The notes: generated by a model not told the origin, from the sequence alone. Numbered from the stretch's first letter, positions 47,525 to 61,701 are shown. The stretch: 64,000 nt of DNA from Bacteriovorax stolpii (GCA_945860415.1 CAMAQA010000001.1:29304-93303); one strand, 5' to 3'. Numbers and translations are program-made.

Positions 47525-48447
47525 GGCGAGCTCCGTGTTCGTAACCGAGGATCAGCCCACGCCAGGAGCAGCTCCGTGGCCGCGTTGAATAGAACGAGCA
47601 ACAGGCCGAACACGAGCGTCGTGCCCATCACCAGCGGGTAATCGCGATTCAGTACCGCTGACACAAAGTAGCGTCCCATGCCTGGAATCTGGAAGAGCGT
47701 CTCGACGAGGAAGGACCCGGTCAGGAGGTGTGCTGCCACCGGACCGAGAAGTCCGATGCATGGAATCCACGCGTTGCGAAGGGCGTGTCGCCACAGGACG
47801 GCATCCCGGGAGAGTCCTTTTGCATGCGCCGTGCGGATGTAGTCCTGTCCCAGAACATCCATCACGCTTCCTCTCATGAGACGAGTGATCAGGGCCATGG
47901 GTCGCAGCATCAGAGTGAAGGCGGGCAGAATCCAGTGTGACGGCCCCTCCCAGAGAGCCGGCGGAAGCCAGCTCAATTGTATGGAAAAGAGCCAGACGAG
48001 CAGGCTTGCCACGAGAAATCCGGGCAGACTCACCGATGAAAGCAGGATCAGCCGGATCCAGCGGTCCCAGAGCGCGTTCCGGCTCGCGCCCGAATAGATG
48101 CCGAGGGGAACTCCGATCAGCAGGGCGGCAAGCAGGGCAATTCCGCCGAGAGCGAGCGAGTGCGGCAGCGCAGTCGACAGAATCTCGGATACCGAGCGAT
48201 CCGGATGCTGAAACGAGGTTCCGAGATCCCCCGATAGCGATGCCCATGCCCATCTTCCAAACTGATGCGTGATCGGAGCATCGAGGCCGTAGCGACGCTC
48301 GATCTGGAGCTGCACTTCTGCCGGAAGCACGCGATCGGTGTCGAATGGGCCTCCAGGCGCAAAGCGCACGAGAAAGAAGACCGCCATCATCAGGAGTGAA
48401 AGCACCAGCAGTGAGTGCAGCAGGCGTTTGAGCGAGAGTTCCAGCAT
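47521..48447 (-). CDS. ABC transporter permease (OppB/DppB-like). The track ORF runs to 48549; the Met at 48447 shares 1 nt with the upstream stop (TGATG)
   Basis: Typical OppB N-terminus (LKRLLHSLLVLSLLMMAVFFLVRFAPGGPF) and an EAA loop. Confidence 0.8.
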   Translation of the reverse strand: MLELSLKRLLHSLLVLSLLMMAVFFLVRFAPGGPFDTDRVLPAEVQLQIERRYGLDAPITHQFGRWAWASLSGDLGTSFQHPDRSVSEILSTALPHSLALGGIALLAALLIGVPLGIYSGASRNALWDRWIRLILLSSVSLPGFLVASLLVWLFSIQLSWLPPALWEGPSHWILPAFTLMLRPMALITRLMRGSVMDVLGQDYIRTAHAKGLSRDAVLWRHALRNAWIPCIGLLGPVAAHLLTGSFLVETLFQIPGMGRYFVSAVLNRDYPLVMGTTLVFGLLLVLFNAATELLLAWADPRLRTRSSP

Positions 48448-49310
48448 CAGCTCTCCCTCGGAAACTCCACCCAGCCGGAAGCCACAGGAAATCCTCGGGG
48501 CGGCTTCTCGCATTTTCCGAGATGCGACAGCAGCGCGGTGTAAGCGCACAGGAATGAGTCAAATGCCGTCAGGCTCGAGGAAAGCTTCCGCAGATCGCGG
48601 TCATAGATGAAGACTCCGCGCTGGGCGACGAGCTGCTCAAGAAAGACGAGACGTGCGTGGGCGCCCTCCTCGAGCTTGCGATAGCGCGACAGGAATCGTC
48701 GATCGAGCCCCAGCTGCAGGCAGAGCCTGAGAGCCGTCAGTTTCGGTAGTGCTTCGACGAGTTTCTTGCGATCCAGCATGCGCTGGAGAAAGTGCATGCG
48801 CGCTGTCAGGGGCGCGCGATTTCCGCCGAAGGCCTCGTCGACTTCAAACTGCATGGCCTTTGGAAGCGAGGCGAGGACGTGCTGGCGAAGCCAGAGCTCG
48901 ACCGGTCTCTGCGTGTAGGAGGTGAATTCGACGGCCGCGCCCCGGCGTTCCCTGGCCAGCTTCTTTGAAAAACGCGCCATCCACTCGACCGCCGTCTGTT
49001 CAGCCTTGTGGGCGAGAAATGCGGGAGGAAGCGTCAACGGGACGTTCACCGCCATGCGCGTGAATTTTTCGTCCGTGTCATCAAGCTCTTCCAGCAGTGC
49101 CTGATCTCCGGAGGTCAGGCCTTCGGAATGCGGCGATTCATGCCTCGATCCGCGCGGACCGGCTATCCGGTCACGGATATCGAGCAGGAAGATTTTCTGC
49201 TCCTTCGGGTAGAACTCCAGGATCGAGAGCGCGGTCTTGTTGTTCTTGGCGCCCGCAAGCTCCAGGCCGAGGTATCGCTCACGCACGAGTGACCTTGACC
49301 TCCAGGCCAC
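48447..49310 (-). CDS. Hypothetical protein, possibly DUF429-like (RNase H-like fold); weak call
   Basis: N-terminal YLGLELAGAKNNKTALSIL resembles the DUF429 / YqgF-like beta-hairpin. No strong motif otherwise. Confidence 0.3.
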   Translation of the reverse strand: MAWRSRSLVRERYLGLELAGAKNNKTALSILEFYPKEQKIFLLDIRDRIAGPRGSRHESPHSEGLTSGDQALLEELDDTDEKFTRMAVNVPLTLPPAFLAHKAEQTAVEWMARFSKKLARERRGAAVEFTSYTQRPVELWLRQHVLASLPKAMQFEVDEAFGGNRAPLTARMHFLQRMLDRKKLVEALPKLTALRLCLQLGLDRRFLSRYRKLEEGAHARLVFLEQLVAQRGVFIYDRDLRKLSSSLTAFDSFLCAYTALLSHLGKCEKPPRGFPVASGWVEFPRES

Positions 49311-50367
49311 GCGCGACTGCCTTGAACGGCAGATGCCTCACTCCGAGCGATTCGAGTTTCGTGCGAATCTGCTGGCGCTGCTCCGCACCCTTCGGGGTGT
49401 CGGACGATTCCGGAAGGTAGAGGAAGAAGCATCCGCCACCGCCTGCACCGCAGACCTTGCCGGCGACTGCGCCGAGCCGTGCCGCTTCGGCGAAGGCCTG
49501 GTCCATCTGTTCGGTGGTGATTCCTTGGGCAAGCGTGCGGCGGAATTCCCACTCGCGCGCGATGGCCGCGCCGACGCCGTTCCAGTCCTGGACGCCCAGG
49601 GCCTGGTGCAGCTTGCGCGTGGCTTCGGCAATTCCGGTAAAGCCGTACTTCGTGGCGGAGTCGCCATCGATGAGCTGCTTGAAGAGCGCCCAGTTGTTGA
49701 TTCCTGAGTTCCGCGACTGGCCCGAGTAGAAGAGCAGGAGCCGCTTCTCAAGCTCCTTCATCGTCGCTTCAAGGAGGCCCTCTCGCGAGTGCTTTCCGGG
49801 ATTCCACTGCAGGGCCTGAAGGCCGCCGAACATGGCGCCGTAATAATCCTGCACGCCTGCCGGAACCTTGATGACGGTGGTTTCAATGTCGCGAACGATC
49901 GCGATGAGGTCTTCGCCTTCGAGGGCGACATTCGGGGCATCGCCCTCGCGCGACCAGGCCGCGAGCGCGCCTGCGAGCGACACGGAAAGCGTGGAGCTTC
50001 CGCCGAGGCCTGCTCCGGCAGGGCTTCTGGCCTGCGTCTGCACGAGGAGCGATCCCTGCGGCGGGGTCTTTCGTTTTTTGGCGAAAAACCGCAGGAGCTT
50101 GCCATGCAGTTCGAGCTGCGGCGGAAGCTTGAGCGGCTCATCGCCGAGGATGACGTTCCACGGCACCTTCTGTTCGAACTTTTGGTCTTCCGCGCGGAGC
50201 ACGGCGTTCGGAGTGCCGCTGATGACGGCCTCGAGGTGAGTCTGTGCCCAGAGGTCGATGCCCAGATTGACGGTCATCGGCTGGTCGAAGAACAGGTGGA
50301 GCGGCCAGAGATCCAGCGTGCCGCCCGCGAGGTCGATCCGGGTCGGGGCGCGCGAATCAATGATCAT
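49279..50367 (-). CDS. GHMP-family sugar kinase (COG2605, HddA/fucokinase-like). The track ORF runs to 50469; the start at 50367 overlaps the hpt 3' end by 11 nt
   Basis: GHMP motif 1 RIDLAGGTLD, motif 2 PAGAGLGGSSTLSVSLAGAL and motif 3 GKVCGAGGGGCFFL. Confidence 0.65.
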   Translation of the reverse strand: MIIDSRAPTRIDLAGGTLDLWPLHLFFDQPMTVNLGIDLWAQTHLEAVISGTPNAVLRAEDQKFEQKVPWNVILGDEPLKLPPQLELHGKLLRFFAKKRKTPPQGSLLVQTQARSPAGAGLGGSSTLSVSLAGALAAWSREGDAPNVALEGEDLIAIVRDIETTVIKVPAGVQDYYGAMFGGLQALQWNPGKHSREGLLEATMKELEKRLLLFYSGQSRNSGINNWALFKQLIDGDSATKYGFTGIAEATRKLHQALGVQDWNGVGAAIAREWEFRRTLAQGITTEQMDQAFAEAARLGAVAGKVCGAGGGGCFFLYLPESSDTPKGAEQRQQIRTKLESLGVRHLPFKAVARGLEVKVTRA

Positions 50368-50902
50368 GTTCGAGCATCCCGATGTACGGAAGGCCGCGGT
50401 GCTTGCCTTCATAGTCGATGCCGTAACCGACGACGAATTCCTTACCGAGCTTGAATCCCCAGTAATCAATCGGAGGAGTGATCTTCAGGCGCTCTTCCTT
50501 GACCAGCAGCGCGCAGCTCTTGAGCGAGGCTGGCCGGCGGGCACGGAGCATGTTCAGGATGTAATTCAGAGTCAGTCCGCTATGCACCACGTCTTCGATG
50601 ACAAGCACGTGCTTGCCTTCGAGCGGCTCATTGATGTCGAGCGTGACCTTCACTTCGCCCGAAGTGACGGAGCGGTGGTAGGCCTTCACGCCCAGGAACT
50701 CGGTCGTGAGCGTCATGTCGAGCTGTCGGATCAGATCCGTGAAGAAAATGAAGCTGCCCTTGAGCACGCAAACGGCAACGATTTCCTTGCCGGCGTAATC
50801 CTGGCGGATCTCGCGGGCGAGCTCGGCGATCCTTTCCTTGAGCTTGGGTTCGGAAATCAGGATCCGGGGAAGCTTGCTGGCGAAATCATCAGTCGTCGAC
50901 AC
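50357..50902 (-). CDS. hpt: Hypoxanthine-guanine phosphoribosyltransferase
   Basis: PRPP-binding motif VLVIEDVVHSGLT. About 180 aa. Confidence 0.9.
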   Translation of the reverse strand: MSTTDDFASKLPRILISEPKLKERIAELAREIRQDYAGKEIVAVCVLKGSFIFFTDLIRQLDMTLTTEFLGVKAYHRSVTSGEVKVTLDINEPLEGKHVLVIEDVVHSGLTLNYILNMLRARRPASLKSCALLVKEERLKITPPIDYWGFKLGKEFVVGYGIDYEGKHRGLPYIGMLEHDH

Positions 50903-50914
50903 GGGCGGTTCTCC

Positions 50915-51493
50915 TTACTTTTGACCGTGCGTTTCGGGCTCGTGGCAGAAGCGGCAGCGCGCTTCGTACATTTCCTTGGCCCCGACGGCGACGGTGGAAT
51001 TCGGTTCCAAGTTTCCCACGGTCCGCTGGGTTCTGGAAGCGGGAGAACCGCAAACCACGCAAACGGCGGAAAGTTTCGTCACGGCTTCCGCGACGGCCAG
51101 GAGCTTGGGCATCGGACCGAAGGGCTGGCCGCGGAAATCCATATCGAGGCCTGCGACGATCACGCGCATGCCGCGGTAGGCGAGCTTGTTGGCCACTTCG
51201 ACGACTCCATCATCGAAGAACTGGGCTTCGTCGATGCCAACGACCCGGGTATTGTCGTCCACGAGATCCAGGATTTGACGCGAGTTGTCGACTGCGATCG
51301 AGGGCAGCCGATTGGCATCGTGGCTCTGGACATGGTCCTTGGAGTAGCGGTCGTCGATGCGGGGCTTGAAGACCTGGACCTTCTGGCGGCCGATCTGGGC
51401 CCGCTTGCAGCGCCGGACCAGCTCCTCGGTCTTTCCGCTGAACATGCTCCCACACACGACCTCGATGAACCCCTGCAGCGCACGATGAAACAT
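50915..51493 (-). CDS. tdk: Thymidine kinase
   Basis: P-loop GSMFSGKT and a C-terminal Zn ribbon (CVVCG...CRFCH). Confidence 0.9.
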   Translation of the reverse strand: MFHRALQGFIEVVCGSMFSGKTEELVRRCKRAQIGRQKVQVFKPRIDDRYSKDHVQSHDANRLPSIAVDNSRQILDLVDDNTRVVGIDEAQFFDDGVVEVANKLAYRGMRVIVAGLDMDFRGQPFGPMPKLLAVAEAVTKLSAVCVVCGSPASRTQRTVGNLEPNSTVAVGAKEMYEARCRFCHEPETHGQK

Positions 51494-51519
51494 GAAAGTT
51501 CAGTACACTCGAACCCGGA

Positions 51520-52542
51520 TTATTCCAAGCTGCAGGCAGGAACTGATGCGGAGCATCCAAGATAAGCCCTGATCTCAGGATCGGTTCCGAGAATCTTCTC
51601 GATGCGGACCCGAGGTGAGGGGTGGGTTCCAGCCTCATCCGAGAGGTGGTCCTCTTCGCAGAGATCACGGATGCTGTTGCCGACCGCCGCCCAGCGCTGG
51701 GGTTCCGGGTATTCGCCTCCCCATCGCTGGAGCGCACGTGAGGAGATCCTCACGGCCACCCAGTCGGCGAAGGCCTCGGAGAGCTGGTCGTTTCGGCGGC
51801 ACTCGACCCGTGATCGGGGGGTTGCCGCAAGTCCGGCAGTGATGAAGCAGGCACCGAGCCGATCGAAGGCGGGGATGGCCCAGCCGGTGCTGCGGAGCTC
51901 GCAGGGATCAATCGCATGCGCCAGCTCGTGGGCGATCGTGAACACGAGATTGAAACGTGAGCTGGTACCCAGCACATAGGCTCCACCGAAGCGCAGTCGT
52001 CGGGGACTTTGAGGATCGTTTTCCAGGCGTTCGTAAGTGGCCTGCGAGGTCAGCAGCAGCTCGGGCTCATCGGGGTACCCGAGCTGGGGAGACGGAAAGT
52101 CCAGCCGCGTCGTCTGGATTCTTGCCAGGAGCTCTCGCCGGTCTCGCGGAAGAAATGCGGCCTGTTGTTCGATCCAGCGCGAGAGTTCAGCCTTCACCCA
52201 GCGTTCGATCTCCACAATCCGGGCCTTGCGACCTTCTGAAAAAACAGAGGCGATCCAGTCCGGCTGTGCCGCCCGGACTTCGCGGATGGCCGCCTCGGAT
52301 TCGGAGTCGAGCCACACTTCGCCGGTAGGATCCGTGAAGGTACCGATTCCGAAGTCGGGTCGAGTCCTGCAGAATTCCTCGAAAAGCATGCGGCAGCGCT
52401 TTTCGATCCTTCGTGAATGCTGGAGCGATTTTCCTGCGCCCGGCACCCATCGGGGGCGCGTCGAGGTTCGCCACAGGTCCCAAGCCACCAGCACCAGGAG
52501 CGCGATGGCGATCGGCATGAGGATCCGAAGCTTTCGATTCAT
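51520..52542 (-). CDS. Membrane-anchored HExxH (zincin-like) putative metallopeptidase. The track ORF runs to 52959; Met 52542 gives an ATGA overlap with Yip1
   Basis: N-terminal signal anchor (ILMPIAIALLVLVAW) and an FTIAHELAHAIDP zincin motif. The upstream part of the track ORF overlaps the Yip1 gene in another frame and is discounted. Confidence 0.5.
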   Translation of the reverse strand: MNRKLRILMPIAIALLVLVAWDLWRTSTRPRWVPGAGKSLQHSRRIEKRCRMLFEEFCRTRPDFGIGTFTDPTGEVWLDSESEAAIREVRAAQPDWIASVFSEGRKARIVEIERWVKAELSRWIEQQAAFLPRDRRELLARIQTTRLDFPSPQLGYPDEPELLLTSQATYERLENDPQSPRRLRFGGAYVLGTSSRFNLVFTIAHELAHAIDPCELRSTGWAIPAFDRLGACFITAGLAATPRSRVECRRNDQLSEAFADWVAVRISSRALQRWGGEYPEPQRWAAVGNSIRDLCEEDHLSDEAGTHPSPRVRIEKILGTDPEIRAYLGCSASVPACSLE

Positions 52543-53267
52543 GAGACTCCGAAGAGCGCCGACAAAGTACGAAAGGCAACCCAGCTGATGGCAATCACGC
52601 CGCTGATGACCAGCAGGACAAACGCAATCTTTGGAAAGATGGCAATCGTCAGTGCCCGGAAGAAGCTCGTCTTGTAGACCTCGGCCAGGGCAATGGTCAG
52701 GGTGGCAATCATGGCGATTGGCGCCACGAGTGCGCCGACGACCGGAACCACTGTCCAGAGTGCCGCAGCTGAAGAAAAGCAGACGATCCGAATCAAGGTC
52801 CTGAACCGGATGGGTCGCTCCGAGTCCACCAGCACGCGCGCTGCCACGAACACCAGGATGGAAGTGGTGAAGACGCCGGCAAGAGTGGTGAATGGATCCA
52901 GCAGAACCGAGGAGGCTCCCCAGAACCAGGGCAGTACGAGCTCCTTGAATTTCACCCACGCTTCAGCTGCAATCGAGCTCTCCGCATGCCTTCCTGGAGA
53001 GTCGATCGAGGAGAGGTCGCCCGCGAAGTCATTCCATAGCCCAGCGCCCTCCCGGTAGCCGCGCTGAAGGTGCTGGAAAAGCGGTACCTTCCAGAAAAAC
53101 GAAATGGCGGCAGCAAGCCAGTTCGTGACCACTGCGAAGAGCAACGGCATCATCATTCCGCCGTCTCGCGGCATGGTCGCAAAAAATCTTCCCGGATGGA
53201 TGAGCAGCCGGGACGTGGTCCGGAAGTAATGGCCGATGTACCGGACCGGCATCCCGGTCTTGCTCAC
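52539..53267 (-). CDS. Yip1-domain integral membrane protein
   Basis: Five hydrophobic helices with the Yip1/DUF1282-like layout. About 242 aa. ATGA overlaps on both sides. Confidence 0.45.
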   Translation of the reverse strand: MSKTGMPVRYIGHYFRTTSRLLIHPGRFFATMPRDGGMMMPLLFAVVTNWLAAAISFFWKVPLFQHLQRGYREGAGLWNDFAGDLSSIDSPGRHAESSIAAEAWVKFKELVLPWFWGASSVLLDPFTTLAGVFTTSILVFVAARVLVDSERPIRFRTLIRIVCFSSAAALWTVVPVVGALVAPIAMIATLTIALAEVYKTSFFRALTIAIFPKIAFVLLVISGVIAISWVAFRTLSALFGVS

Positions 53268-54718
53268 AGTTTTTCCCAGGGAAGAGCCGAATCCAGTACA
53301 GGATCGAGCTCCAGGATTTCGTGACGGTTCGAAAGCGCATCGCGCCCCAGCACCTTGCCGCCTTCCTTCCAGAACTCGAGCCTTCGCAGCACCTGCGCCT
53401 TGTCGTCCTTGAGTGAAACCTCGAGGGCATCCTTGCCGGGCTTTCGCTCGGGCAGGAACGCCTTCACCTTGTTTCCGCTCAGCCGATCGAGGATCGAGCT
53501 GACCTTGGAGTCCTCATCCTGCGTCGAGGCACCATCGCGAGCCCACTTGCCCTCTTTCTTGGTGAACACGACCGCAGTGGCGCCGAGCGATGCCGATCGG
53601 AACGTGACCTCGCGTGCGTTGAAGCGATCCATGGAGCCGAGTAGACGCGAGAGCCGCAGATCCTGGATCGACTTCGCGAGCCTCTGCCGAGCCGTGCCCT
53701 CCAGCTCATAGACCGGGTCCAGGTTGGAGGCCGTGAGGAAGAGTTTTTCCATCTGCGACGACTTCTTCTCGAAGAGCTGAAGGGCAATCGGTTTTTCTCC
53801 CTGCTTGGCGAGCATGATCTCGATTACGGGTTTTGCTCCAGCAAGGGCCTTTCGTCCCTCGGGCGAGTTCTTCCGTTCCGCAGCGAATTCGCGGGCCGAC
53901 AGGTAGGCCACTGCCGAGGTCCAGTTGTCGATGTTCTCGATGTCGCCCGGCAGTCCCGAGTAGGTCATGCCGTTTTCACGGCCATTGAGTGTCCACTGCA
54001 GGTCCTTCTTCGACGCTTCGAAGGTCGACTTCGCGCTCTTGTAGCGAATGCTCGAAATCTCTCCCGAATGAAGAGTCAGGATCTTCTTGTCGCGCCAGTG
54101 CGTGAGCGGCTTGGAGATCGCCTCCTTGAACGAGGTGGGAATCATGAGAACCCGGGCGTCCGGTGCAGGCACTTCGCCCTTCTTCATGCGCTCGACCAGC
54201 GCGAAGCGCGAATCACCGAGCGGATGCAGATCACCGAGGACGATTGCGATCCGGTTTCCGGAATCATCCGTGACCTCCACCCGCTGCGCGAATTTCCTCT
54301 GCTCGTCCGAAAGGCCATACTCGGCGAGAAGCCTCGTGCGCTTCTCGGGAGTTTCCGAGGACAGGTCTACGGAGTCCGTGGGCAGGAGATTATTCAGCGA
54401 CGACAGCAGCGACTGCACGTTCACTTCATCCGCTCGGAGCTTCGAGGGCGAGCGCACCTCCCACTTCGAATTGGTGCCGGCGAGACACTGCCTGGCTGCA
54501 AGATCGAGGCATCCGAGGCTCACCAGTGATGCTCCCTGGATCAGGGTCACTTCGGCCACCTGGTTCTCGTCCAGGAGGAAGACCTTCTTTTCCTGTGCCT
54601 TCTGCTTTTCGGTATCAGGCTTCTTCTTGAACTCTAGCCAATACACGGCCGTGCTGAGCACCGTCAGTACTCCTGCGAGCGCGACCGGCCGGGTCCAGCT
54701 CGGACTCTTGGTTGACAT
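53264..54718 (-). CDS. DUF4340-domain protein (accessory component of Gld-type ABC systems)
   Basis: N-terminal TM anchor, about 480 aa, in the conserved position downstream of the GldG-like gene. Confidence 0.55.
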   Translation of the reverse strand: MSTKSPSWTRPVALAGVLTVLSTAVYWLEFKKKPDTEKQKAQEKKVFLLDENQVAEVTLIQGASLVSLGCLDLAARQCLAGTNSKWEVRSPSKLRADEVNVQSLLSSLNNLLPTDSVDLSSETPEKRTRLLAEYGLSDEQRKFAQRVEVTDDSGNRIAIVLGDLHPLGDSRFALVERMKKGEVPAPDARVLMIPTSFKEAISKPLTHWRDKKILTLHSGEISSIRYKSAKSTFEASKKDLQWTLNGRENGMTYSGLPGDIENIDNWTSAVAYLSAREFAAERKNSPEGRKALAGAKPVIEIMLAKQGEKPIALQLFEKKSSQMEKLFLTASNLDPVYELEGTARQRLAKSIQDLRLSRLLGSMDRFNAREVTFRSASLGATAVVFTKKEGKWARDGASTQDEDSKVSSILDRLSGNKVKAFLPERKPGKDALEVSLKDDKAQVLRRLEFWKEGGKVLGRDALSNRHEILELDPVLDSALPWEKL

Positions 54719-54734
54719 GGCTTTACTCCTCCAT

Positions 54735-56285
54735 TTAAAGGCGCTTGCGATAAGCCCAGAACCCGATGCCGCCCGAAGCGATCAGAAGCGGCATGGCGAT
54801 CACGGAAACCAGGAATATCAGGGTTCCCTGCTTCTGCGAGAGCTCGATCTTTCCGATGGTCGCATCCTTGGGACGGATGGAGATCATGTTCTCATCCTCC
54901 ATCACCCAGGAGGCGGCATTCAGAAAAAGATCCGCATTACCCACGAGCCGCGAAAAATTGTTGTTGGCGAAAAGCGAGCTCGCGAAAACGACCAGCCGGG
55001 TGTTGCGTGAAGCCTTGGAGTCCTTCAGCTTGCCCTCAACGGCCACCATCGCGTTCAAGGGGCCGGCCTTGTCGGTCGGGTTCTGCTGAACCTTGCCTTC
55101 GGCGAGTTCCTTGAAGTTGCCTTCAGCCCAGGCCTTGGGAGTCGACTGCGCCAGCCACTGGACATTTAGTGTGGCGGGTGCACCCGGAACGATGTCGATC
55201 GGACGCGCAAAGGGCATCGCGGCGTTGAGCGCGAAGTCTCTGGTGATCGCGTTGTCCTTGGAGAACGTGGGCAGGATCACGACCGAGGGGTCAAGATTCA
55301 GAACGCGCGAGAACGGATCGACCAGCATCGCCTTGCCCGGCTGGACGTGCCAGGACGCCAGTACCGGAAACAGCTCGGCAGCCGGCTCGCCGCCCTTCAT
55401 GTCGATGTCGAGGGCAACGAGCGCGCGACCCCCGTTGGCAAGATAGTCGCGGATCAGCGGAACTTCCTGCGGAAAGAAGGCCTTCTGTCCTCCCCAGATC
55501 GCCACGGCATTGCAGCTTTCCGGAATCCTTCCTTCTGTCACGAGATTCAGATCACGGATCTCATACGCCTGGTTGGTCAGGCCCTTGCGAACGGCATCGA
55601 AGCCCTCGGCGTCGGTGGCGGTGAACGACTTCTCGCCGTGGCCGGTCAGGACGCAGAGCTGCTGTGAGGAATCCTTATTGAGCTTGATCAGCGCGTTCGT
55701 CACCTTCTCTTCCGTGAGCTCGGTCACCTGGCTGTCGCGGGCGCCCGAGATGATCTGGAGCGTTCCGTAGGTTCGGATTCCCGCCTGCTTGGTGCGAATG
55801 GGTTCCTTGTTCGGGTCGACGATTTCGATTTCGATCTTCGACGGATTCAGCGCGCGGTAGTTTTCGAGGAACGACCGACTGGTTTCCGCCTGTTCGACTT
55901 TTCCGAAATAGACGAACTTGATCGATGACCGGAGCTCGCGCGCGAGCTTTTTCGTCTGGTCCGAAAGCGTGTGGAGCTGGTCCTTCGTGAGGTCCACCTT
56001 GCCGGGGTTGCGATGGCCCAGGAAATTGATCACCCCGAGGATGGCGATCACGAGGAGCGTCGTCATCATCGAGTGCGAGCCATAGGCGACTGCCCTCCCC
56101 TGCAGCTTCCTGCGATTGAGCACGATGAATCCGGCGAGATCGGCGATGAGCAGGATGCCGAGCAGGATGTTGAGCCACGCGTATTCCGGAAAAAGGCTCA
56201 CGGTAAACAGCAGCGTGAACGCCAGGATGCCTGCCCCGATGCCGAGCATTGTCGTCGTTTCCATCTTCTTCTTGGAATTTTCCAT
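54735..56285 (-). CDS. GldG-family ABC transporter auxiliary protein
   Basis: TM helices at both termini flanking a large periplasmic domain of about 450 aa. Follows an ABC-2 permease and an ATPase. Confidence 0.65.
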   Translation of the reverse strand: MENSKKKMETTTMLGIGAGILAFTLLFTVSLFPEYAWLNILLGILLIADLAGFIVLNRRKLQGRAVAYGSHSMMTTLLVIAILGVINFLGHRNPGKVDLTKDQLHTLSDQTKKLARELRSSIKFVYFGKVEQAETSRSFLENYRALNPSKIEIEIVDPNKEPIRTKQAGIRTYGTLQIISGARDSQVTELTEEKVTNALIKLNKDSSQQLCVLTGHGEKSFTATDAEGFDAVRKGLTNQAYEIRDLNLVTEGRIPESCNAVAIWGGQKAFFPQEVPLIRDYLANGGRALVALDIDMKGGEPAAELFPVLASWHVQPGKAMLVDPFSRVLNLDPSVVILPTFSKDNAITRDFALNAAMPFARPIDIVPGAPATLNVQWLAQSTPKAWAEGNFKELAEGKVQQNPTDKAGPLNAMVAVEGKLKDSKASRNTRLVVFASSLFANNNFSRLVGNADLFLNAASWVMEDENMISIRPKDATIGKIELSQKQGTLIFLVSVIAMPLLIASGGIGFWAYRKRL

Positions 56286-56291
56286 GTCAGC

Positions 56292-57056
56292 TTACCTCCA
56301 GCGGAACGAGTCCAGGACTCGGTGCGTGAGAAACAGTCCCAGGCCGATGAACGACAGATAATAGATGATGTCCGTCGAGTTCAGGACGCCCTGGCTGAAG
56401 TTGTTGTAGTGATTGATGAGCGACAGGTAGTTCAGGATGTCTCCCCAGGTCGATCCCACGGACTGGGCGGCCCAGTTGATGAGCCAGAAGAACAGTCCGA
56501 ACGCAAACGTCAGCGCGCCTGCCACGATCTGGTTTTCGGTCATCGCCGAGAAGAGTAGCCCGAACGCAAGGTAGCAGCCCACCAGGAGTGCCGTTCCGAG
56601 GTACGACATCAGGATCGGACCCGGATCCGGGTTGCCGAACAGGAAGAGCACCGCCGGATATGTTGCAGTAAGTGCCAGCATCACCAGCACGAGCAGGAAC
56701 GAGGACAGGAACTTGCCCAGGATGATCTCGGCCAGCGAAACCGGAGCCGTGAGCAGCAGCTGGATCGTGCTGTTCTTTCGCTCCTCGGCAAGAAGCCTCA
56801 TCGTGATGAATGGCACGAGGAACAGGAAGATCACATTCATGTTGCCGTAGAGCGGGCGAATGATGCCGTCGGTGATCGAGACCCCCTTGCCCAGGTTCAT
56901 CTGCAGCGCCTGCATGTTCTGCATGTTGAAGTAGGACAGGTTGAAGAAGAACATCCACCCCATGATGGCCAGGAATCCGGCGATCAGGATGTAGGCGATC
57001 GGAGAGGTGAAGTAGGATTTGAAATCGCGGCTGGCGATGGTCCAGATGTTTTTCAC
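56292..57056 (-). CDS. ABC-2 type transporter permease (GldF-like)
   Basis: Six TM helices, about 254 aa. A 4-nt overlap with the upstream ATPase. Confidence 0.7.
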   Translation of the reverse strand: MKNIWTIASRDFKSYFTSPIAYILIAGFLAIMGWMFFFNLSYFNMQNMQALQMNLGKGVSITDGIIRPLYGNMNVIFLFLVPFITMRLLAEERKNSTIQLLLTAPVSLAEIILGKFLSSFLLVLVMLALTATYPAVLFLFGNPDPGPILMSYLGTALLVGCYLAFGLLFSAMTENQIVAGALTFAFGLFFWLINWAAQSVGSTWGDILNYLSLINHYNNFSQGVLNSTDIIYYLSFIGLGLFLTHRVLDSFRWR

Positions 57057-58024
57057 AGGTTTTCCTCCGTGGTGAGCTGCAGGAAGATCTCCTCGAGGCT
57101 CAGCTTTTCAGCGACAAATTCAAGAAGTCCCATGCGATGCGAGACGACCGTTTCGGTGATGCGGTCGCGCACTTCGCCCGCTTCCGGAAGGATCTCGACC
57201 GTGAGCCGGGATTCGGCAGTCGAGGCCGAGTCGGATACGGCCTTGATTCCCGGAATCGCACGGATCGCGGCGATGCCATCCGGAGTCAGATTGCGGACGG
57301 CCAGGCTGTAGATCCGGCCCTGCTGGATCCGCGTGGTGAGCCGATCGAGGGTGTCCTGTGCGGCAATCCGTCCCTTGTTGATCACGATCACTCGGTCGCA
57401 GGTGGCCGTCACTTCCGGAAGGATGTGCGTGCTCAGGATGATGGTGTGCTCTCCGGCAAGCTCCTTGATGAGCTTGCGGATCTCGATGATCTGCTTTGGA
57501 TCGAGGCCGACGGTCGGCTCGTCCAGGATCAGCACCTGCGGATTGTGGGCAATGGCCTGGGCGATGCCGACTCGCTGGCGGTAGCCCTTCGAGAGATTGC
57601 CGATCAGGCGTTTTCGAACATCCCCGAGCACGGTCTTTTCAATCGCAGTGGTCACTGCGGACTCGATCCTGGACTTCTCGACACCATGGAGCCGGGTCGT
57701 GAAGCGGAGGTAATCCTCCACCGACATCTCGGTGTAGACGGGGGGATTCTCCGGCAGGAATCCGATGTTGCGTTTGACCTCGATGGGTGAGTCGAAGACG
57801 TCGAAGCCTGCAACCGTGGCGGTACCTTCGGTTGCGGGCATGAAGCCTGTCAGGATCTTCATCGTGGTGCTCTTGCCTGCGCCGTTCGGCCCCAGGAATC
57901 CCACGATTTCCCCGCGCCTGACCTCAAAATTCAGGCTGTCGACCGCCGTGCGGGGACCATATCGCTTCGTCAAGTTCTGTACCTGGATCATGCGTCGATC
58001 TCCGTTTGTCTGAAGTTTTCCCAA
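57053..58024 (-). CDS. ABC transporter ATP-binding protein (GldA-like)
   Basis: Walker A GPNGAGKST, signature LSKGYRQR and Walker B ILDEPT. Confidence 0.9.
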   Translation of the reverse strand: MGKLQTNGDRRMIQVQNLTKRYGPRTAVDSLNFEVRRGEIVGFLGPNGAGKSTTMKILTGFMPATEGTATVAGFDVFDSPIEVKRNIGFLPENPPVYTEMSVEDYLRFTTRLHGVEKSRIESAVTTAIEKTVLGDVRKRLIGNLSKGYRQRVGIAQAIAHNPQVLILDEPTVGLDPKQIIEIRKLIKELAGEHTIILSTHILPEVTATCDRVIVINKGRIAAQDTLDRLTTRIQQGRIYSLAVRNLTPDGIAAIRAIPGIKAVSDSASTAESRLTVEILPEAGEVRDRITETVVSHRMGLLEFVAEKLSLEEIFLQLTTEENL

Positions 58025-58053
58025 ATAATGAAAATGGAGCAGGGTTTGTCAAG

Positions 58054-59280
58054 TCATGGAAGGTCGAGACGGTACGCGGATATCACGCCGTCATCGGTTC
58101 CCAGCACCAGCATGCCGGGAGAGTGGGCGACTCCGCGAGAGTACAGGTAGGCACCCTCATCCGCCAGGATTGGAATGTGTACCTGCATGGTGCCCTGCCG
58201 ATCGAGCGCCACCACGTGGCTGTACCTCGTCCGATCGTTGATGCTTTCAAACCCCAGCATCGTCCAGTTCGAGACGATGTCCATGCTCAGGTTGTAGTCG
58301 GCATACCGGGGCGAGTGATAGCTCCACTTTTCCTGAAGCTGGGGTTCAGTGTCGTATTGCGCGACCGCCTGCCCGCGGGGGCCATTGCCGTAAACCGAAA
58401 GCCACTTGCCGTCATCCGACAGCTCCAGCTGCTGAAACGGAATGTGCTGGCGCACCTCCTGGCGGCTGCGTCCCTTGTCCGCCAGCGTTACGATGGATTG
58501 TCCGAACTCGAGGTGATTCAGCAGGAGTGCGTTTTCGATGAACGCGCCTTTTTCGGAAGGTGAAGAAATCGCGGCATCGACGATTTCTCCGTCAAGCTGC
58601 TTTTCCCAGATCTTCTTGAAATCAGGGCCGAGTACCCAGATCCGCCCCTTCACAAAGCCGACGAGAATCCTCGATTCATCGGCTGATACCTTGAGCAGGA
58701 GCGAGTCATGAGGAGCCTTCTGCTCGAAAGTCCTCCTTCCCTCTGCATCAAAAACCTGGAACACGAGCCCCGGCGAGGCATCATCGTCATGATGGCAGAG
58801 CACCTGCGAGGATTTTTCGAGCACCAGTGGCCTGCACATGCCTGTATCCTTTGCCCTCCAGAGCACCTTGCCGGATCCGGAGTCCAGGCGAAGCAGCTCC
58901 TCCTGGTAGGTGCTGAGAAGGATCCAGTCGCCCGATTTCGAGATTGCCTGCGAGCGGACGGGGGCATCGATGATCGACTTCCAGAGACGCTTTCCCGAAG
59001 CGTTGAACAGGCTCACCTGGGTTCGGTTTTCAGAAATGCTTTCCAGGATCTCGGAGACGAGAGTCTGTCCGGAGATGTGTGCGACGGAGAGATCGGTCAG
59101 CTTTCCATCAAGCGAGTCCTTCCACGCAACCGTTGGAACCATCACCGGCGTTGGACCTTTCGAAAACGGAAGATGCTCGGCCCTCCCGACGGATCGACCC
59201 GTGGTCGAGCACCCGCTGCAGGAAACCAAAGAGCCAACGACGGCGATGATCGCCAATGGAAGCAGCGGGCGTTTGACCAT
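58054..59280 (-). CDS. Lipoprotein with PQQ-like beta-propeller repeats (BamB-like); weak call
   Basis: Lipobox LVSCSGC and recurring G-[KR]-x-LW-[KR] propeller-blade motifs. Confidence 0.4.
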   Translation of the reverse strand: MVKRPLLPLAIIAVVGSLVSCSGCSTTGRSVGRAEHLPFSKGPTPVMVPTVAWKDSLDGKLTDLSVAHISGQTLVSEILESISENRTQVSLFNASGKRLWKSIIDAPVRSQAISKSGDWILLSTYQEELLRLDSGSGKVLWRAKDTGMCRPLVLEKSSQVLCHHDDDASPGLVFQVFDAEGRRTFEQKAPHDSLLLKVSADESRILVGFVKGRIWVLGPDFKKIWEKQLDGEIVDAAISSPSEKGAFIENALLLNHLEFGQSIVTLADKGRSRQEVRQHIPFQQLELSDDGKWLSVYGNGPRGQAVAQYDTEPQLQEKWSYHSPRYADYNLSMDIVSNWTMLGFESINDRTRYSHVVALDRQGTMQVHIPILADEGAYLYSRGVAHSPGMLVLGTDDGVISAYRLDLP

Positions 59281-59322
59281 GATGTGCTCGATGTTACAGT
59301 AGGACTTCAGGCGGGATCAACC

Positions 59323-60225
59323 ATGCGGCTTGCAGTACTCACACGGAATCGAAATCTCCACAGCATCCGACGGCTCCTGCAGGAGGCGAGCAAGCTCGGC
59401 GTGCAGCTGGATACCATCAATCCGGTCGAGTGCCAGATGATCGTCGATGGGTCGACCAGTCGGATCGTCGTTGGGGCGCAGGAGATTTCTCGCTACGACG
59501 CCGTGCTTCCGCGGATAGGTGCCTCCATCACGCAGTATGGGCTGGCAGTCGTGAAGCAGTTCGAGATGCTCGGCATGTTCACCGTCAATAGTTCGTTGGC
59601 CATCGCCGAGTCGCGCGACAAGTTCCGCGCGCTCCAGATGCTGAACCAGGCCGGTATTCGTGTTCCCGCCACGGTGCTGACCCGTTCGCAGCGGAGCCTC
59701 CGTTCGACGTCGCGAGCCGTCGGGGGCATGCCGGTCATCGCCAAGCTTCTCCAGGGCACCCAGGGGGTTGGCGTGATGCTGCTGCATACTCCCGCCTCAT
59801 TCCAGTCTGTCGTCGAGACGCTTTGGGACTTCGGAGTCGATGTCTTCGTACAGCAGTTCCTGAAGGAGGGGGCCGGCAGCGATTACCGGGCCTTTGTTGT
59901 CGGAAATCGAGTCGTGGCCGCGATGCAGAGAACCGCATCTCGCGGAGAGTTCCGTTCGAATATCCACCGGGGAGGCGAGGGAGCGCTGGTGCGCCTGCCC
60001 AGGGCCTATGAGCGAGCTGCCGTCAAGGCCGCCCAGGTCTTCGGACTGGAGATCGCCGGAGTCGACCTCATGGCTAGCAAGAATGGACCTGCGGTGCTCG
60101 AGGTAAACAGCTCGCCGGGGTTCGAGGGAATCGAACGCGCCACCGGACTCAACATCGCGGGCGAGATCGTTGCCCACATGGTGAAGCTGGCGCAAAAGGA
60201 GAAAGGCCGGAGGCGGAAGCGCTGA
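59323..60225 (+). CDS. rimK: Ribosomal protein S6--L-glutamate ligase RimK (ATP-grasp)
   Basis: Collinear with E. coli RimK over 300 aa (RLAVLTRN..., VIAKLLQGTQGVGVML, FRSNIHRGG, LEVNSSPGFEGIE). The ATG at 59323 lies 205 codons into the longer track ORF (58708), which is antisense to the upstream lipoprotein gene. Confidence 0.9.
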   Translation: MRLAVLTRNRNLHSIRRLLQEASKLGVQLDTINPVECQMIVDGSTSRIVVGAQEISRYDAVLPRIGASITQYGLAVVKQFEMLGMFTVNSSLAIAESRDKFRALQMLNQAGIRVPATVLTRSQRSLRSTSRAVGGMPVIAKLLQGTQGVGVMLLHTPASFQSVVETLWDFGVDVFVQQFLKEGAGSDYRAFVVGNRVVAAMQRTASRGEFRSNIHRGGEGALVRLPRAYERAAVKAAQVFGLEIAGVDLMASKNGPAVLEVNSSPGFEGIERATGLNIAGEIVAHMVKLAQKEKGRRRKR

Positions 60226-60573
60226 TCAGCCGACCATGCGCTGGTAGCGCTGGCGAGCCCGCTTCTTTCGCGTCTTCGGAATGCCGCGAGTGAAGTCCTC
60301 GATGGTGGGGCATCCATAGATCTTCTTCGTCAGCATGATGTTCACCTGCTCCGCCAATTCTTCAACGATCGCGGGCTCGAGAGACTTCGGGACGGCGATG
60401 TTTTTTTGACGAAGAAATCCGAGGTAATCTGCGACGATGCCGCAGATAAATGTCTTGCGGTCAGAGTCTGAATCTTGAAAGTTATAAAGATGCTGCTCGA
60501 AAATCACGTAAAGCGGATCCGTCTTGCCTGATTTCGAGTCTGAGCTGGAGGAGGAGGTTGCCTTGGCTTTCAT
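60226..60573 (-). CDS. Small hypothetical protein with a Ser-rich N-terminus and a strongly basic C-terminus
   Basis: 115 aa. C-terminal KTRKKRARQRYQRM. Its stop directly abuts the rimK stop (convergent). No family assigned. Confidence 0.35.
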   Translation of the reverse strand: MKAKATSSSSSDSKSGKTDPLYVIFEQHLYNFQDSDSDRKTFICGIVADYLGFLRQKNIAVPKSLEPAIVEELAEQVNIMLTKKIYGCPTIEDFTRGIPKTRKKRARQRYQRMVG

Positions 60574-60609
60574 GCGTGGATCTCACCTTCACACCAACCA
60601 TCGGAAGGG

Positions 60610-61701
60610 ATGGGCACAAGCTTGAGCACGAGCAAGGGTTCCAAGGGCGCCACGAAGGCGCCGCGCGTGGAGCTGTCGAAATCCAAGGAATTCGTCAAGT
60701 TTCGCGAGGCAATCGACGGCGCCAAGCGCGTACTCATCTCGACGCATCAATTGCCTGACGGCGATGGTCTTGGTGCAGAGACAGCGCTGTTCCACTACCT
60801 CAAGCGCGCCCGCAAGGCCTGCCGCGTCTACAATCCTGATCCGCTTCCGAAGCGTTACCGCTTTCTGGATCCGAAAGGCCAAATTCTCCTCGGACCGGGG
60901 CAGGTCGAGCTGTGGGATACCTGCGATCTCTGGATCATCGTGGACACGAATGATCCTCGTCGGCTGGGCAAGCTCTGGCAGGAGATGTCGCTTCGTGCGC
61001 GCAAGATCGTGTTTCTTGACCACCATCCCGAAATCGCGGGCGTGGGCGAGATCGCCTATCCGCCGCATGCTTCGGTGCTTGCAGACGTGCAGTCGAGTTC
61101 GATCGGAGAAATGCTCCATCATGTCTTCCAGGAGCTGAATCTGGTGAAGCTCAACCAGGATATCGCCCTTGGGCTTTACGTTTCGATCATGACCGACACG
61201 AACAGCTTTCGATATGCCCGCACGACGCCTCAGGCGCATCGCATCGCTGCCGAGATGATCGAGGCGGGAGTGAATCCGGAAGAGATCTACCAGAACATCT
61301 ACTCGTCAAAAGAGCTCTCGCATCTCCATCTTCTGGGAAACATGCTCCAGAACGTGAAGGTCACGGCTGGCGGCAAGGTGGCCTGGCTCGAGATGGCGCT
61401 CGATCTTCGCAAGCGCCACCAGGCGAGTGCCGATGATACGCAATCGTTCCTGAACCAGCTGCTCCTGCTCAAGGACGCTGAAGTGGTCTGCTTCTTCCGC
61501 GAGGAGGACGACAACCAGGTGCGCGTCTCGATCAAGTCGAAGGGCAAGGTCGTCATCAACAAGGTGGCGATGGAGCTCGGTGGCGGAGGCCACGACTATT
61601 CGGCCGGACTGGCGCTCTCGGCGCCGATCGAAAAGACCGTCGAGGCCGTGATCAAGCGCCTCGAGACGGTCGTCGCGCACTACGAGAAGTTTGGTAAATA
61701 A
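60610..61701 (+). CDS. nrnA: DHH-family oligoribonuclease / pAp phosphatase NrnA
   Basis: DHH motifs (HQLPDGDGLGAE, DHH at VFLDHHPE) and a DHHA1 GGGH motif. Confidence 0.8.
   Translation: MGTSLSTSKGSKGATKAPRVELSKSKEFVKFREAIDGAKRVLISTHQLPDGDGLGAETALFHYLKRARKACRVYNPDPLPKRYRFLDPKGQILLGPGQVELWDTCDLWIIVDTNDPRRLGKLWQEMSLRARKIVFLDHHPEIAGVGEIAYPPHASVLADVQSSSIGEMLHHVFQELNLVKLNQDIALGLYVSIMTDTNSFRYARTTPQAHRIAAEMIEAGVNPEEIYQNIYSSKELSHLHLLGNMLQNVKVTAGGKVAWLEMALDLRKRHQASADDTQSFLNQLLLLKDAEVVCFFREEDDNQVRVSIKSKGKVVINKVAMELGGGGHDYSAGLALSAPIEKTVEAVIKRLETVVAHYEKFGK

Follow-up and report, generated by a model that had tools for sequence, protein, structure and literature searches.

The region between positions 51,520 and 59,280 of the window, by which we mean the whole 64,000-nucleotide stretch of Bacteriovorax stolpii DNA analysed here, raises the question of whether neighbouring envelope genes on one strand form one machine. 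A first-pass annotation had read them as a Gld-type ABC cassette with a BamB-like lipoprotein, extended by translationally coupled genes for a Yip1-domain protein and an HExxH protein, and had suggested that the last two might process or quality-control the substrate of the transporter. We followed up this reading by comparing the genes, their junctions and their neighbourhoods across relatives, together with structure predictions.

Gene content and packing of the region

All seven open reading frames were found on the minus strand, and the same seven genes had been called independently on the public contig from which the window comes, confirming the annotated map. The genes and motifs of the region, with the two genes that follow it, are listed below.

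58054-59280, minus strand: BamB-like lipoprotein gene (PQQ_2, 30.6 bits)
58025-58052, minus strand: sigma-70-like promoter match TTGACA-16-CATTAT between the lipoprotein and ATPase genes, a consensus match only
57053-57991 (open reading frame to 58024), minus strand: ABC ATPase gene, GldA-like (ABC_tran, 106.9 bits)
56292-57056, minus strand: ABC-2 type permease gene, GldF-like (ABC2_membrane_2, 61 bits)
54735-56285, minus strand: GldG-like auxiliary protein gene (ABC_transp_aux, 92 bits; DUF7088, 40.6 bits)
53264-54718, minus strand: DUF4340 protein gene (PF14238, 82.6 bits)
52539-53267, minus strand: Yip1-family five-helix membrane protein gene (PF04893, 27.2 bits)
51520-52542, minus strand: HExxH peptidase gene (zincin motif; M13-type fold prediction)
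52474-52530, minus strand: predicted N-terminal transmembrane anchor of the peptidase, residues 5-23, after the basic stretch MNRK
51916-51930, minus strand: HELAH motif of the peptidase, followed by D212 (HELAHAID), from sequence and conservation
51763-51777, minus strand: EAFAD (ExxxD motif) of the peptidase, from the translation, with E256 and D260 invariant
50915-51493, minus strand: thymidine kinase gene, tk (PF00265, 183.6 bits)
50357-50902, minus strand: hypoxanthine/guanine phosphoribosyltransferase-type gene, hpt (Pribosyltran, 91.4 bits)

The seven genes are tightly packed and belong to a co-directional run of 12 genes with gaps of -11 to +62 nt, unrelated genes included; a gap of 26 nt separates the peptidase gene from tk, the next gene downstream, and one of 12 nt separates tk from hpt. 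The ATGA overlaps that had been described held for one junction of two: the Yip1 and HExxH genes are joined by ATGA, whereas DUF4340 and Yip1 are joined by a GTGA overlap with a GTG start. Public gene calls place both starts at downstream ATGs, replacing the overlaps by gaps of 11 nt before Yip1 and 20 nt before the HExxH gene. For the latter, the upstream ATG is supported because the basic N-terminus is conserved in homologues (MNRKLRIL, MTRKLRIL, MNGKLRLIL).

The region contains two sigma-70-like sites, where chance alone would give 2.1. The internal promoter that might have separated the Yip1 and peptidase genes did not appear in the consensus scan of the region, so their co-transcription here is still likely. 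A terminator scan of the region gave sites no more numerous than in shuffled sequence, and neither Rfam families nor meaningful repeats were detected in positions 50000-60500.

The first gene of the region had been counted as part of the conserved cassette, which the comparison with relatives did not bear out. Its product carries an N-terminal lipobox (LVSC), and its match to the generic PQQ_2 propeller repeat lies above the Pfam gathering cut-off; a true BamB is ruled out by the score of 46.3 bits against TIGR03300, whose cut-off is 285.2. The gene is co-directional with the ATPase gene only in the window's own clade (L002, L003 and, weakly, L066), and stands on the opposite strand in at least eight other genome loci. 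Relative to locus L034, the segment comprising the lipoprotein, RimK, a small open reading frame and DHH is inverted, and the lipoprotein adjoins the cassette only because of this local inversion. It is a beta-propeller syntenic neighbour, not a conserved cassette gene.

The exporter cassette and its fifth gene

The order ATPase, ABC-2 permease, ABC_transp_aux and DUF4340 on one strand, which the annotation had recognised as a cassette, is present in the window, in about 70 Bdellovibrionota loci and, identically, on plasmids of Bradyrhizobium and Subdoligranulum, and thus in other phyla too. The ATPase gene likely starts at the ATG at 57991, in agreement with the public-contig call of 312 aa, while its open reading frame reaches back to a TTG at 58024; it meets the permease gene in a GTGA overlap with a GTG start. 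The permease has six hydrophobic segments, and its gene a GGAGG ribosome-binding site. The GldG-like protein has transmembrane segments at each end, and the DUF4340 protein a single N-terminal one (residues 12-30). True GldA, GldF and GldG equivalogs are ruled out by NCBIfam scores under the cut-offs for all three: 323 bits against TIGR03522 (cut-off 402.6) for the ATPase, 141 bits against TIGR03518 (288.5) for the permease and 66.5 bits against TIGR03521, far under its cut-off of 389.85, for the GldG-like protein. The literature gave only passing mentions of DUF4340; in SAR11, a DUF4340 orthologous group (OG1814) has a conserved place beside ABC transporter genes and is a predicted transporter subunit.

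The protein encoded after DUF4340 matches PF04893 with 27.2 bits (E 4e-6), 1.4 bits under the gathering cut-off of 28.6, and 11 of 19 relatives match the same family, with a best E of 7e-14. It has five predicted transmembrane helices and an all-helical AF2 model (pLDDT 82); the Pfam match together with this topology places it in the Yip1 family. Homologue searches retrieved 13 proteins with a single query and 18 with a profile, the sole distant one (P0116) lying in an unrelated gene context.

DUF4340 lies directly upstream of Yip1 in all 31 Yip1-anchored metagenome loci, the spacing is at most about 55 nt in 41 genome loci, and at least 18 of the genome loci share a stop/start overlap of 4 nt. 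Nothing was ever seen inserted between DUF4340 and Yip1 in the loci examined, whereas the junction between Yip1 and the peptidase is interrupted in some. Yip1 is a lineage-specific extension of the ATPase/ABC-2/GldG-like/DUF4340 cassette, and among the loci sampled it occupies the fifth position only in Bdellovibrionota, so that a widespread cassette gains a constant fifth gene in this group.

It might be argued that Yip1, too, is merely carried along by synteny and does something in the membrane that has nothing to do with the ABC system. We hold this to be very improbable, given the unbroken and repeatedly overlapping junction with DUF4340. In addition, the Bradyrhizobium cassette also has a polytopic membrane protein after DUF4340, likewise with a 4-nt overlap, and there is a precedent in Bacillus, where the Yip1-family protein YknW modulates how the YknXYZ ABC pump is assembled (PMC4887032). 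By analogy with YknW, the protein may serve the exporter as a membrane-integral subunit with an accessory or assembly role, and it is a concrete candidate subunit for structural and genetic work on cassette transporters. The analogy for this role is a single one and comes from a different ABC class, MacB-type with a membrane fusion protein.

The HExxH peptidase and its genomic neighbours

The last of the seven genes encodes a protein of 340 aa, within a family of 290-405 aa. It had been described as signal-anchored with an intact zincin site, and both parts stood: an N-terminal transmembrane segment is predicted, and H205, E206, H209, D212, E256 and D260 do not vary among 37 homologues with identities down to 28%. 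Because of this invariance, HELAH is not a chance match. R313 is likewise invariant, and eight cysteines are conserved. A profile search gave 1,146 clusters at 50% identity, 53 of them close relatives; the family has many secreted paralogues in Bdellovibrionota, its named records come almost only from this group, and a cluster look-up returned no names for the larger paralogues. Searches of the protein against Pfam, NCBIfam and PADLOC yielded nothing usable, and its profile against all PDB sequences reached a best E of 0.85, with unrelated chains and no M13 chain.

The AF2 model of the protein (pLDDT 90) has a helix at residues 3-28, and the top 11 Foldseek matches were all M13 enzymes, with 253-263 of the 340 residues aligned to targets of 630-697 aa. 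The M48/M56-like fold that had been suggested earlier gave way to an M13 catalytic domain; M48/M56-type proteases were ruled out by far lower fold scores. Neither Peptidase_M13 (PF01431) nor Peptidase_M13_N (PF05649) matched the window protein or its close homologues at E up to 10, and one distant family member (P0185) gave a faint Peptidase_M13 match (16.5 bits, E 0.0066, cut-off 24.5).

In M13 and thermolysin-type gluzincins, an ExxxD motif supplies the third zinc ligand. The M13 active site lies in a closed chamber whose second (lid) domain restricts substrates to peptides no longer than about 40 residues, and mammalian neprilysin and ECE carry an N-terminal type-II membrane anchor. We take three further features of the window protein to be M13 echoes: its HPxPxVRI stretch, resembling neprilysin H711...R717, its N-terminal C...C pair, resembling the start of M13_N, and a cysteine near the C-terminus. 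The motifs described for M13 are HExxH, ENxxD, VNAxx and Asp-His triads, and D591 of NEP is the aspartate that hydrogen-bonds a histidine ligand of the zinc site (PMC4701951). HExxH with the downstream aspartate is present here (HELAHAID). The putative counterpart of ENxxD is EAFAD, 47 residues from HExxH, with A, S or T at the asparagine position. VNAxx is missing; the candidate R-x-R-x-GGAY has glycine for asparagine, an equivalence judged by eye and not by structural alignment, and within it G186 is invariant and G187 and A188 are kept in at least 90% of sequences. Nor does the protein have the two-domain architecture of about 630-750 aa that encloses the active site in M13. It is half the M13 size because the second domain is missing. 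The model thus describes a type-II-anchored, cysteine-rich and lid-less zinc endopeptidase of predicted M13 catalytic-domain fold, which would be enzymatically active in the periplasm, and whose cleft, for want of the lid, should be open to larger substrates.

The genomic link between this peptidase and the cassette is frequent but not obligate. The conservation expected for the Yip1/HExxH pair held for Yip1, which always accompanies DUF4340, and failed for the peptidase, which directly follows Yip1 in 18 of 24 Yip1-anchored loci and is missing there in six (L085, L091, L104, L106, L114 and L115). Counted from the HExxH side, it sits right behind Yip1 in 39 of 50 loci, again about three quarters, and this adjacency persists at peptidase identities as low as about 29%; in the other 11, mostly one clade and including five complete Bdellovibrio sp. 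HCB genomes, no cassette lies within 4.9-10 kb upstream. Three loci (L036, L038 and L041) carry an SDR/epimerase gene between Yip1 and the peptidase. The pair is not a unit, since Yip1 is always with DUF4340 and the peptidase is facultative. The L014 locus, which at first looked unlinked, is better explained by the insertion, upstream of the peptidase, of a defence or mobile island carrying AbiE-like and HicB-like genes.

Two side observations concern the pair itself. The 4-nt overlap of the Yip1 and peptidase genes in the window, L001, L002 and L044 fits co-translation, and in one lineage (L109-L111) a second Yip1 paralogue immediately 3' of the peptidase hints at a relationship between the two.

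The suggestion that Yip1 and the peptidase form a processing or quality-control module, in which the anchored peptidase trims, matures or clears the cargo or the periplasmic GldG/DUF4340 scaffold on the outer side of the inner membrane, is possible, yet we consider it unlikely. The adjacency counts, the 4-nt overlaps, the missing promoter-like site, the second Yip1 paralogue and the predicted inner-membrane anchoring of both proteins speak for it. Against it, the six loci that pass from Yip1 straight to other genes make the peptidase dispensable for the cassette, the cassettes sampled in other phyla are without it, in 11 loci it occurs with no cassette in the upstream stretch covered, so that its location does not depend on the cassette, and in three loci unrelated genes are interposed between it and Yip1. 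Its commonest immediate neighbour is not Yip1 but a small lipoprotein, which directly follows it in 41 of 63 loci and in 10 of the 11 unlinked loci with both flanks readable; this lipoprotein has no copy in the window and no family in Pfam. Furthermore, tk and hpt equal the peptidase in synteny and in tightness of packing: hpt is syntenic in most loci, and tk lies downstream in 42 of 57 HExxH-anchored loci, follows in 29 of the 32 where the cassette precedes, and comes directly after Yip1 in L091, L104 and L106. Since unrelated genes further down the 12-gene run are also joined by short overlaps, adjacency and overlap are no argument for such a module, and in this compact genome they are no evidence of shared function.

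A stronger form of the same idea makes the peptidase a dedicated periplasmic partner of the GldG/DUF4340/Yip1 system, docking via Yip1 and cleaving cargo or scaffold, with the unlinked copies merely relocated and the functional link unbroken. This appears decidedly unlikely to us; were it true, this would be the first case of an M13-type maturation protease built into an ABC-2 exporter.

A third possibility, to which we give little probability, is that the peptidase degrades peptides generally, as a periplasmic or secreted enzyme of nutrition or prey digestion, and that the oligopeptides are imported by Opp-type permeases encoded downstream. Bacterial M13 enzymes do degrade peptides for nutrition (PMC4701951), the family of more than 1,000 clusters is rich in secreted Bdellovibrionota paralogues, and genes for OppB-/OppC-like permeases and an SBP_bac_5 protein are located 2.5-5 kb farther downstream in the contig; in L115, Opp-like permeases come directly after Yip1. 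However, tk, hpt, a GHMP kinase and an unknown gene lie between peptidase and permeases here, and Opp genes are not near the unlinked peptidase loci of Bdellovibrio sp.

A probable composite region and its comparison with known systems

On balance, we think it probable, with moderate confidence, that the region is three things sharing a strand and probably a transcript, and not one seven-gene machine. First, the functional core would be a five-gene envelope ABC system of ATPase, ABC-2 permease, GldG-like protein, DUF4340 protein and Yip1, the last possibly serving the exporter as YknW serves YknXYZ. Second, the last gene would encode a zinc endopeptidase that a single N-terminal helix anchors in the membrane, with a disulfide-rich catalytic domain facing the periplasm and the HExxHxxD plus ExxxD site intact in the predicted M13 fold. 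This peptidase would be a facultative neighbour that may be split from Yip1, placed elsewhere in the genome or absent, and it is probably functionally independent of the exporter; the small lipoprotein gene that follows it in most relatives would have been lost here. Third, the BamB-like lipoprotein gene appears to stand upstream solely through the local inversion.

Among known systems, GldA, GldF and GldG of Flavobacterium johnsoniae give the best NCBIfam matches and share the subunit types; the host here belongs to Bdellovibrionota and not Bacteroidota, and the F. johnsoniae set is without the DUF4340 and Yip1 proteins present here. The cassettes of SAR11, Bradyrhizobium and Subdoligranulum share all four genes from ATPase to DUF4340, and their order. 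That Yip1 lies outside the described cassette, as the first-pass annotation had it, agrees with their fifth position, which holds a HupE/UreJ membrane protein on the Bradyrhizobium plasmid and is empty on that of Subdoligranulum, whereas here it holds Yip1.

For Yip1 itself, the YknWXYZ system of B. subtilis and B. amyloliquefaciens is alike in encoding a Yip1-family polytopic protein within an ABC exporter operon (PMC4887032). YknYZ, however, is a MacB/FtsX-type pump of a Gram-positive envelope that works together with a membrane fusion protein, in contrast to the ABC-2, GldG-like and DUF4340 proteins found here; the likeness to YknW is at the level of the Pfam family, and the coupling in the window is known from genomic adjacency and overlap.

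With regard to the peptidase, BepA (M48) and BlaR1 (M56) are similar in that their HExxH zincin core is positioned on the periplasmic side of the inner membrane. The M13 enzymes neprilysin, ECE-1, PepO and Zmp1 share HExxH with an aspartate three residues later and ExxxD, but they are about 630-700 aa long and have the lid domain, and they keep the asparagines of ENxxD and VNAxx where the window protein has EAFAD and GGAY. The eight conserved cysteines and the usual pairing with a small lipoprotein also set the peptidase apart. This previously unannotated family would thus consist of neprilysin/PepO-like zinc peptidases of half the usual size, lid-less but with the active site intact, and such a naturally open M13-like form would be of interest both for peptidase classification and for the envelope biology of predatory bacteria.

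Gene map and local context

All seven genes that the first-pass annotation had described were recovered on the minus strand with the boundaries it had assigned, and independent gene calls on the window's public contig (ENA ERZ27280289 k141_889037, 115 kb; L118 among our numbered loci) gave an identical map. The host is an uncultured Bdellovibrionota, with Bdellovibrionia and Bdellovibrionales MAGs as the closest named records.

Seven-gene cluster (window coordinates)
58054-59280, minus: BamB-like lipoprotein (PQQ_2 propeller repeat, 30.6 bits)
57053-57991, minus: ABC ATPase (ABC_tran; GldA the best model; ORF extendable to a TTG at 58024)
56292-57056, minus: ABC-2 permease (GldF the best model)
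54735-56285, minus: GldG-like protein (ABC_transp_aux and DUF7088)
53264-54718, minus: DUF4340 protein (PF14238, 82.6 bits)
52539-53267, minus: Yip1-family protein (PF04893, 27.2 bits)
51520-52542, minus: HExxH protein, the putative peptidase (without Pfam or NCBIfam match)

The ATPase and permease genes join at a GTGA, and spacers of 6 and 16 nt precede the GldG-like and DUF4340 genes, respectively. ATGA overlaps had been reported downstream of DUF4340; this held at the Yip1/HExxH junction, but the DUF4340/Yip1 junction is GTGA. Public gene calls place the Yip1 and HExxH starts at downstream ATGs, which would turn the overlaps into gaps of 11 and 20 nt. The upstream ATG is preferable for the peptidase, because a basic N-terminus then precedes the hydrophobic helix and homologues begin alike.

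A possible processing or quality-control module for the transporter's substrate had been suggested. Intergenic distances lie between -11 and +62 nt along a run of 12 co-directional genes on the window's contig (window ~45700-59280; L118:2239-14828), which takes in the lipoprotein, five cassette genes, peptidase, tk, hpt, GHMP kinase, an unknown gene, OppB-like and OppC-like. Functionally unrelated genes overlap too (hpt/GHMP kinase by 11 nt, GHMP kinase/unknown gene by 8 nt), and tk follows the peptidase in 29 of the 32 loci where the cassette precedes it. Conserved order and short overlaps are thus the norm in this region and cannot alone support a functional module. A promoter scan for sigma-70-like sites detected none between the Yip1 and peptidase genes and one between the lipoprotein and ATPase genes, but was no richer than shuffled sequence.

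The BamB-like lipoprotein, previously counted as a cassette gene, shares the cassette's orientation in the window's clade alone (L002, L003 and, weakly, L066). In other loci the lipoprotein-RimK-small ORF-DHH phosphoesterase segment lies the opposite way round; a local inversion accounts for the adjacency. The inverted segment (window 58054-61701; compare L034:567-4154) encodes the lipoprotein, a RimK-like ATP-grasp protein, a 115-aa ORF and a DHH-DHHA1 phosphoesterase; the inversion, relative to other Bdellovibrionota, sets the lipoprotein head-to-tail with the ABC ATPase gene.

Linkage of the peptidase to the cassette

In a HExxH-anchored sample of 80 species-level genome loci, with relatives of the window's genes placed by tblastn, upstream linkage was scored in the 50 close-family loci (L001-L068) where 3 kb or more was available upstream. 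The cassette preceded the peptidase in the window's order in 39 of these and was missing in 11, including five complete Bdellovibrio sp. HCB genomes; the unlinked loci fell mostly in one clade of a neighbour-joining tree. L014 (Bdellovibrionota bacterium FG-2), an apparent unlinked exception, has what looks like an inserted defence or mobile island ahead of the peptidase. This opposite-strand block (L014:372-4489) was read by eye as an AbiE-like toxin/antitoxin, a HicB-like gene and an ATPase; in the sister FG-1 (L008) the ABC cassette occupies its place.

A second sample comprised 34 metagenome-contig loci anchored on Yip1. The peptidase came next in 18 of the 24 loci with sufficient downstream sequence and was absent from six, where Yip1 was directly followed by tk (L091, L104, L106), hpt (L114), Opp-like permeases (L115) or small secreted ORFs (L085). 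Where both genes were present, spacing between Yip1 and peptidase was mostly 20-160 nt, rising to 300-750 nt in three loci, and in L036, L038 and L041, from the HExxH-anchored sample, the two were parted by 1.5-1.9 kb of unrelated genes, including an SDR/epimerase-like gene. This same-strand gene (L036:2297-3709, L038:8397-9779, L041:7856-8758) was assigned by eye from its sequence, and in L036 and L038 it has a C-terminal extension fused to it.

Yip1 and the peptidase do not form a constant pair: the cassette was not upstream of the peptidase in 11 of 50 loci, and the peptidase did not follow Yip1 in 6 of 24. The observation itself was confirmed and its interpretation only partly supported: the peptidase is probably an independent, facultative neighbour of the ABC system, and a dedicated role in processing its cargo appears unlikely.

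A gene for a lipoprotein of ~155 aa lies immediately 3' of the peptidase in 41 of the 63 loci with enough downstream sequence, among them 10 of the 11 unlinked loci that could be read on both sides. It matches no Pfam family. It is present with or without an ABC cassette nearby (e.g., L052:10928-11395, L014:5745-6218, L046:11019-11483, L047:10963-11457), with a conserved C-R-[ST]-P-F ... G-C-R pattern. The window has no copy, tk starting 26 nt past the peptidase stop codon; the gene has been lost several times, the window's clade included. The product may be an inhibitor, a surrogate for the lid (the domain closing the active site in M13 enzymes) or an outer-membrane partner. In one metagenomic lineage its usual slot holds a second, divergent Yip1 paralogue (L111:10243-10887, L109:6189-6767), leaving the peptidase between two Yip1 genes.

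Fold and family of the HExxH protein

Searches of Pfam, NCBIfam, PADLOC and PDB sequences gave no hit for the HExxH protein; a word-indexed search found ~96 homologues. When 37 homologues, as distant as 28% identity, were aligned, H205, E206, H209 and D212 (HELAHAID), E256 and D260 (SEAFADW), and R184, G186 and R313 were invariant, as were six of eight conserved cysteines (C50 and C58 in at least 90%). The zincin motif is intact, as first proposed. An AlphaFold2 model built on this alignment was confident (pLDDT 90, pTM 0.84). Its N-terminal helix (residues 3-28) coincides with the sole hydrophobic segment (residues 5-23), in agreement with the signal anchor described earlier.

Fold scores of the HExxH model (251-263 residues aligned to each M13 structure)
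PepO: 20.7
neprilysin: 20.3
Zmp1: 20.3
P. gingivalis PepO: 20.1
ECE-1: 15.9
nematode M13: 15.4
M48 BepA (outside M13): 8.9
thermolysin (outside M13): 6.5

Scores fell sharply outside M13, the neprilysin/PepO family, and Foldseek agreed, M13 structures filling all of its top 11. A gluzincin, M48- or M56-like fold had been suggested; the model points to a gluzincin of M13 type, but not to M48. The defining motifs of M13 enzymes are HExxH, ENxxD and VNAxx, and their substrates are limited to peptides of ~40 residues according to MEROPS (PMC4701951). The HExxH protein retains the zinc ligands and two supporting Asp residues but lacks both motif Asn residues, with EAFAD for ENxxD and a candidate counterpart, GGAY, for VNAxx, and by Pfam criteria falls outside M13. 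At 340 aa, against 630-700 aa in M13 enzymes, it has no room for a lid domain. We read the model as a type-II-anchored, disulfide-bonded, periplasm-facing gluzincin with an open cleft, either M13-derived or an M13 sister. The modelled protein has the fold and active site of a peptidase and is presumably enzymatically active.

Among 1.84 billion representatives, a profile search retrieved 1,146 clusters at E <=0.001, 53 of them at <=1e-30. In the second tier are cysteine-rich secreted proteins, 400-615 aa long, that combine HExxH with E[SA]F[AS]D and have no Pfam match except for one faint Peptidase_M13 hit; the whole superfamily appears to lack annotation. These proteins (P0158-P0258, e.g., P0160 on the L080 contig) have 10-18 cysteines and share with the window's peptidase a CxDLxxFxCAPGxYxDGTG N-terminal start as well as both motifs, which in them are separated by a long insertion. 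The named HExxH loci all belonged to Bdellovibrionota-type lineages or unclassified MAGs.

Yip1 and the ABC cassette among known systems

Yip1 is more tightly linked to the cassette than the peptidase is. DUF4340 lay directly upstream in all 31 Yip1-anchored loci with upstream sequence. In 41 genome loci the spacing between DUF4340 and Yip1 never exceeded ~55 nt, with a 4-nt overlap in at least 18. PF04893 matched 11 of 19 relatives (best E 7e-14) and the protein has five hydrophobic helices; on these sequence features the family assignment is sound. Its AlphaFold2 model had no informative PDB neighbour. Some orthologues (L036:1436-2263, L038:7529-8356, L085:1162-1983) are extended at the N-terminus by a zinc-ribbon-like feature, presumably cytoplasmic, that contains two CPNCG-type CxxC pairs; the window's Yip1 lacks it.

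Flavobacterium Gld models were the best matches for the ATPase, permease and GldG-like protein. All three scored under the equivalog cut-offs, so 'Gld-type' denotes resemblance rather than membership. The four-gene core of ATPase, ABC-2 permease, GldG-like and DUF4340 genes was found in other phyla too, and DUF4340 has been predicted to be a transporter subunit in a SAR11 preprint. In a Bradyrhizobium plasmid cassette the gene after DUF4340, overlapping it by 4 nt, encodes a HupE/UreJ membrane protein, whereas nothing follows DUF4340 in a Subdoligranulum plasmid cassette. The former, alphaproteobacterial copy (L117:7425-9052, Bradyrhizobium sp. 195 plasmid p195_1) has a short DUF4340 of 175 aa. 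Because the fifth position differs, Yip1 is a lineage-specific variant lying outside the described cassette, as originally noted. The Bradyrhizobium arrangement suggests that the polytopic membrane protein encoded after DUF4340 varies between lineages. The best-supported picture is a five-gene ABC system in which Yip1 would act as an accessory. The only characterised bacterial Yip1 precedent that we found is YknW, an assembly modulator of the YknXYZ ABC pump (PMC4887032).
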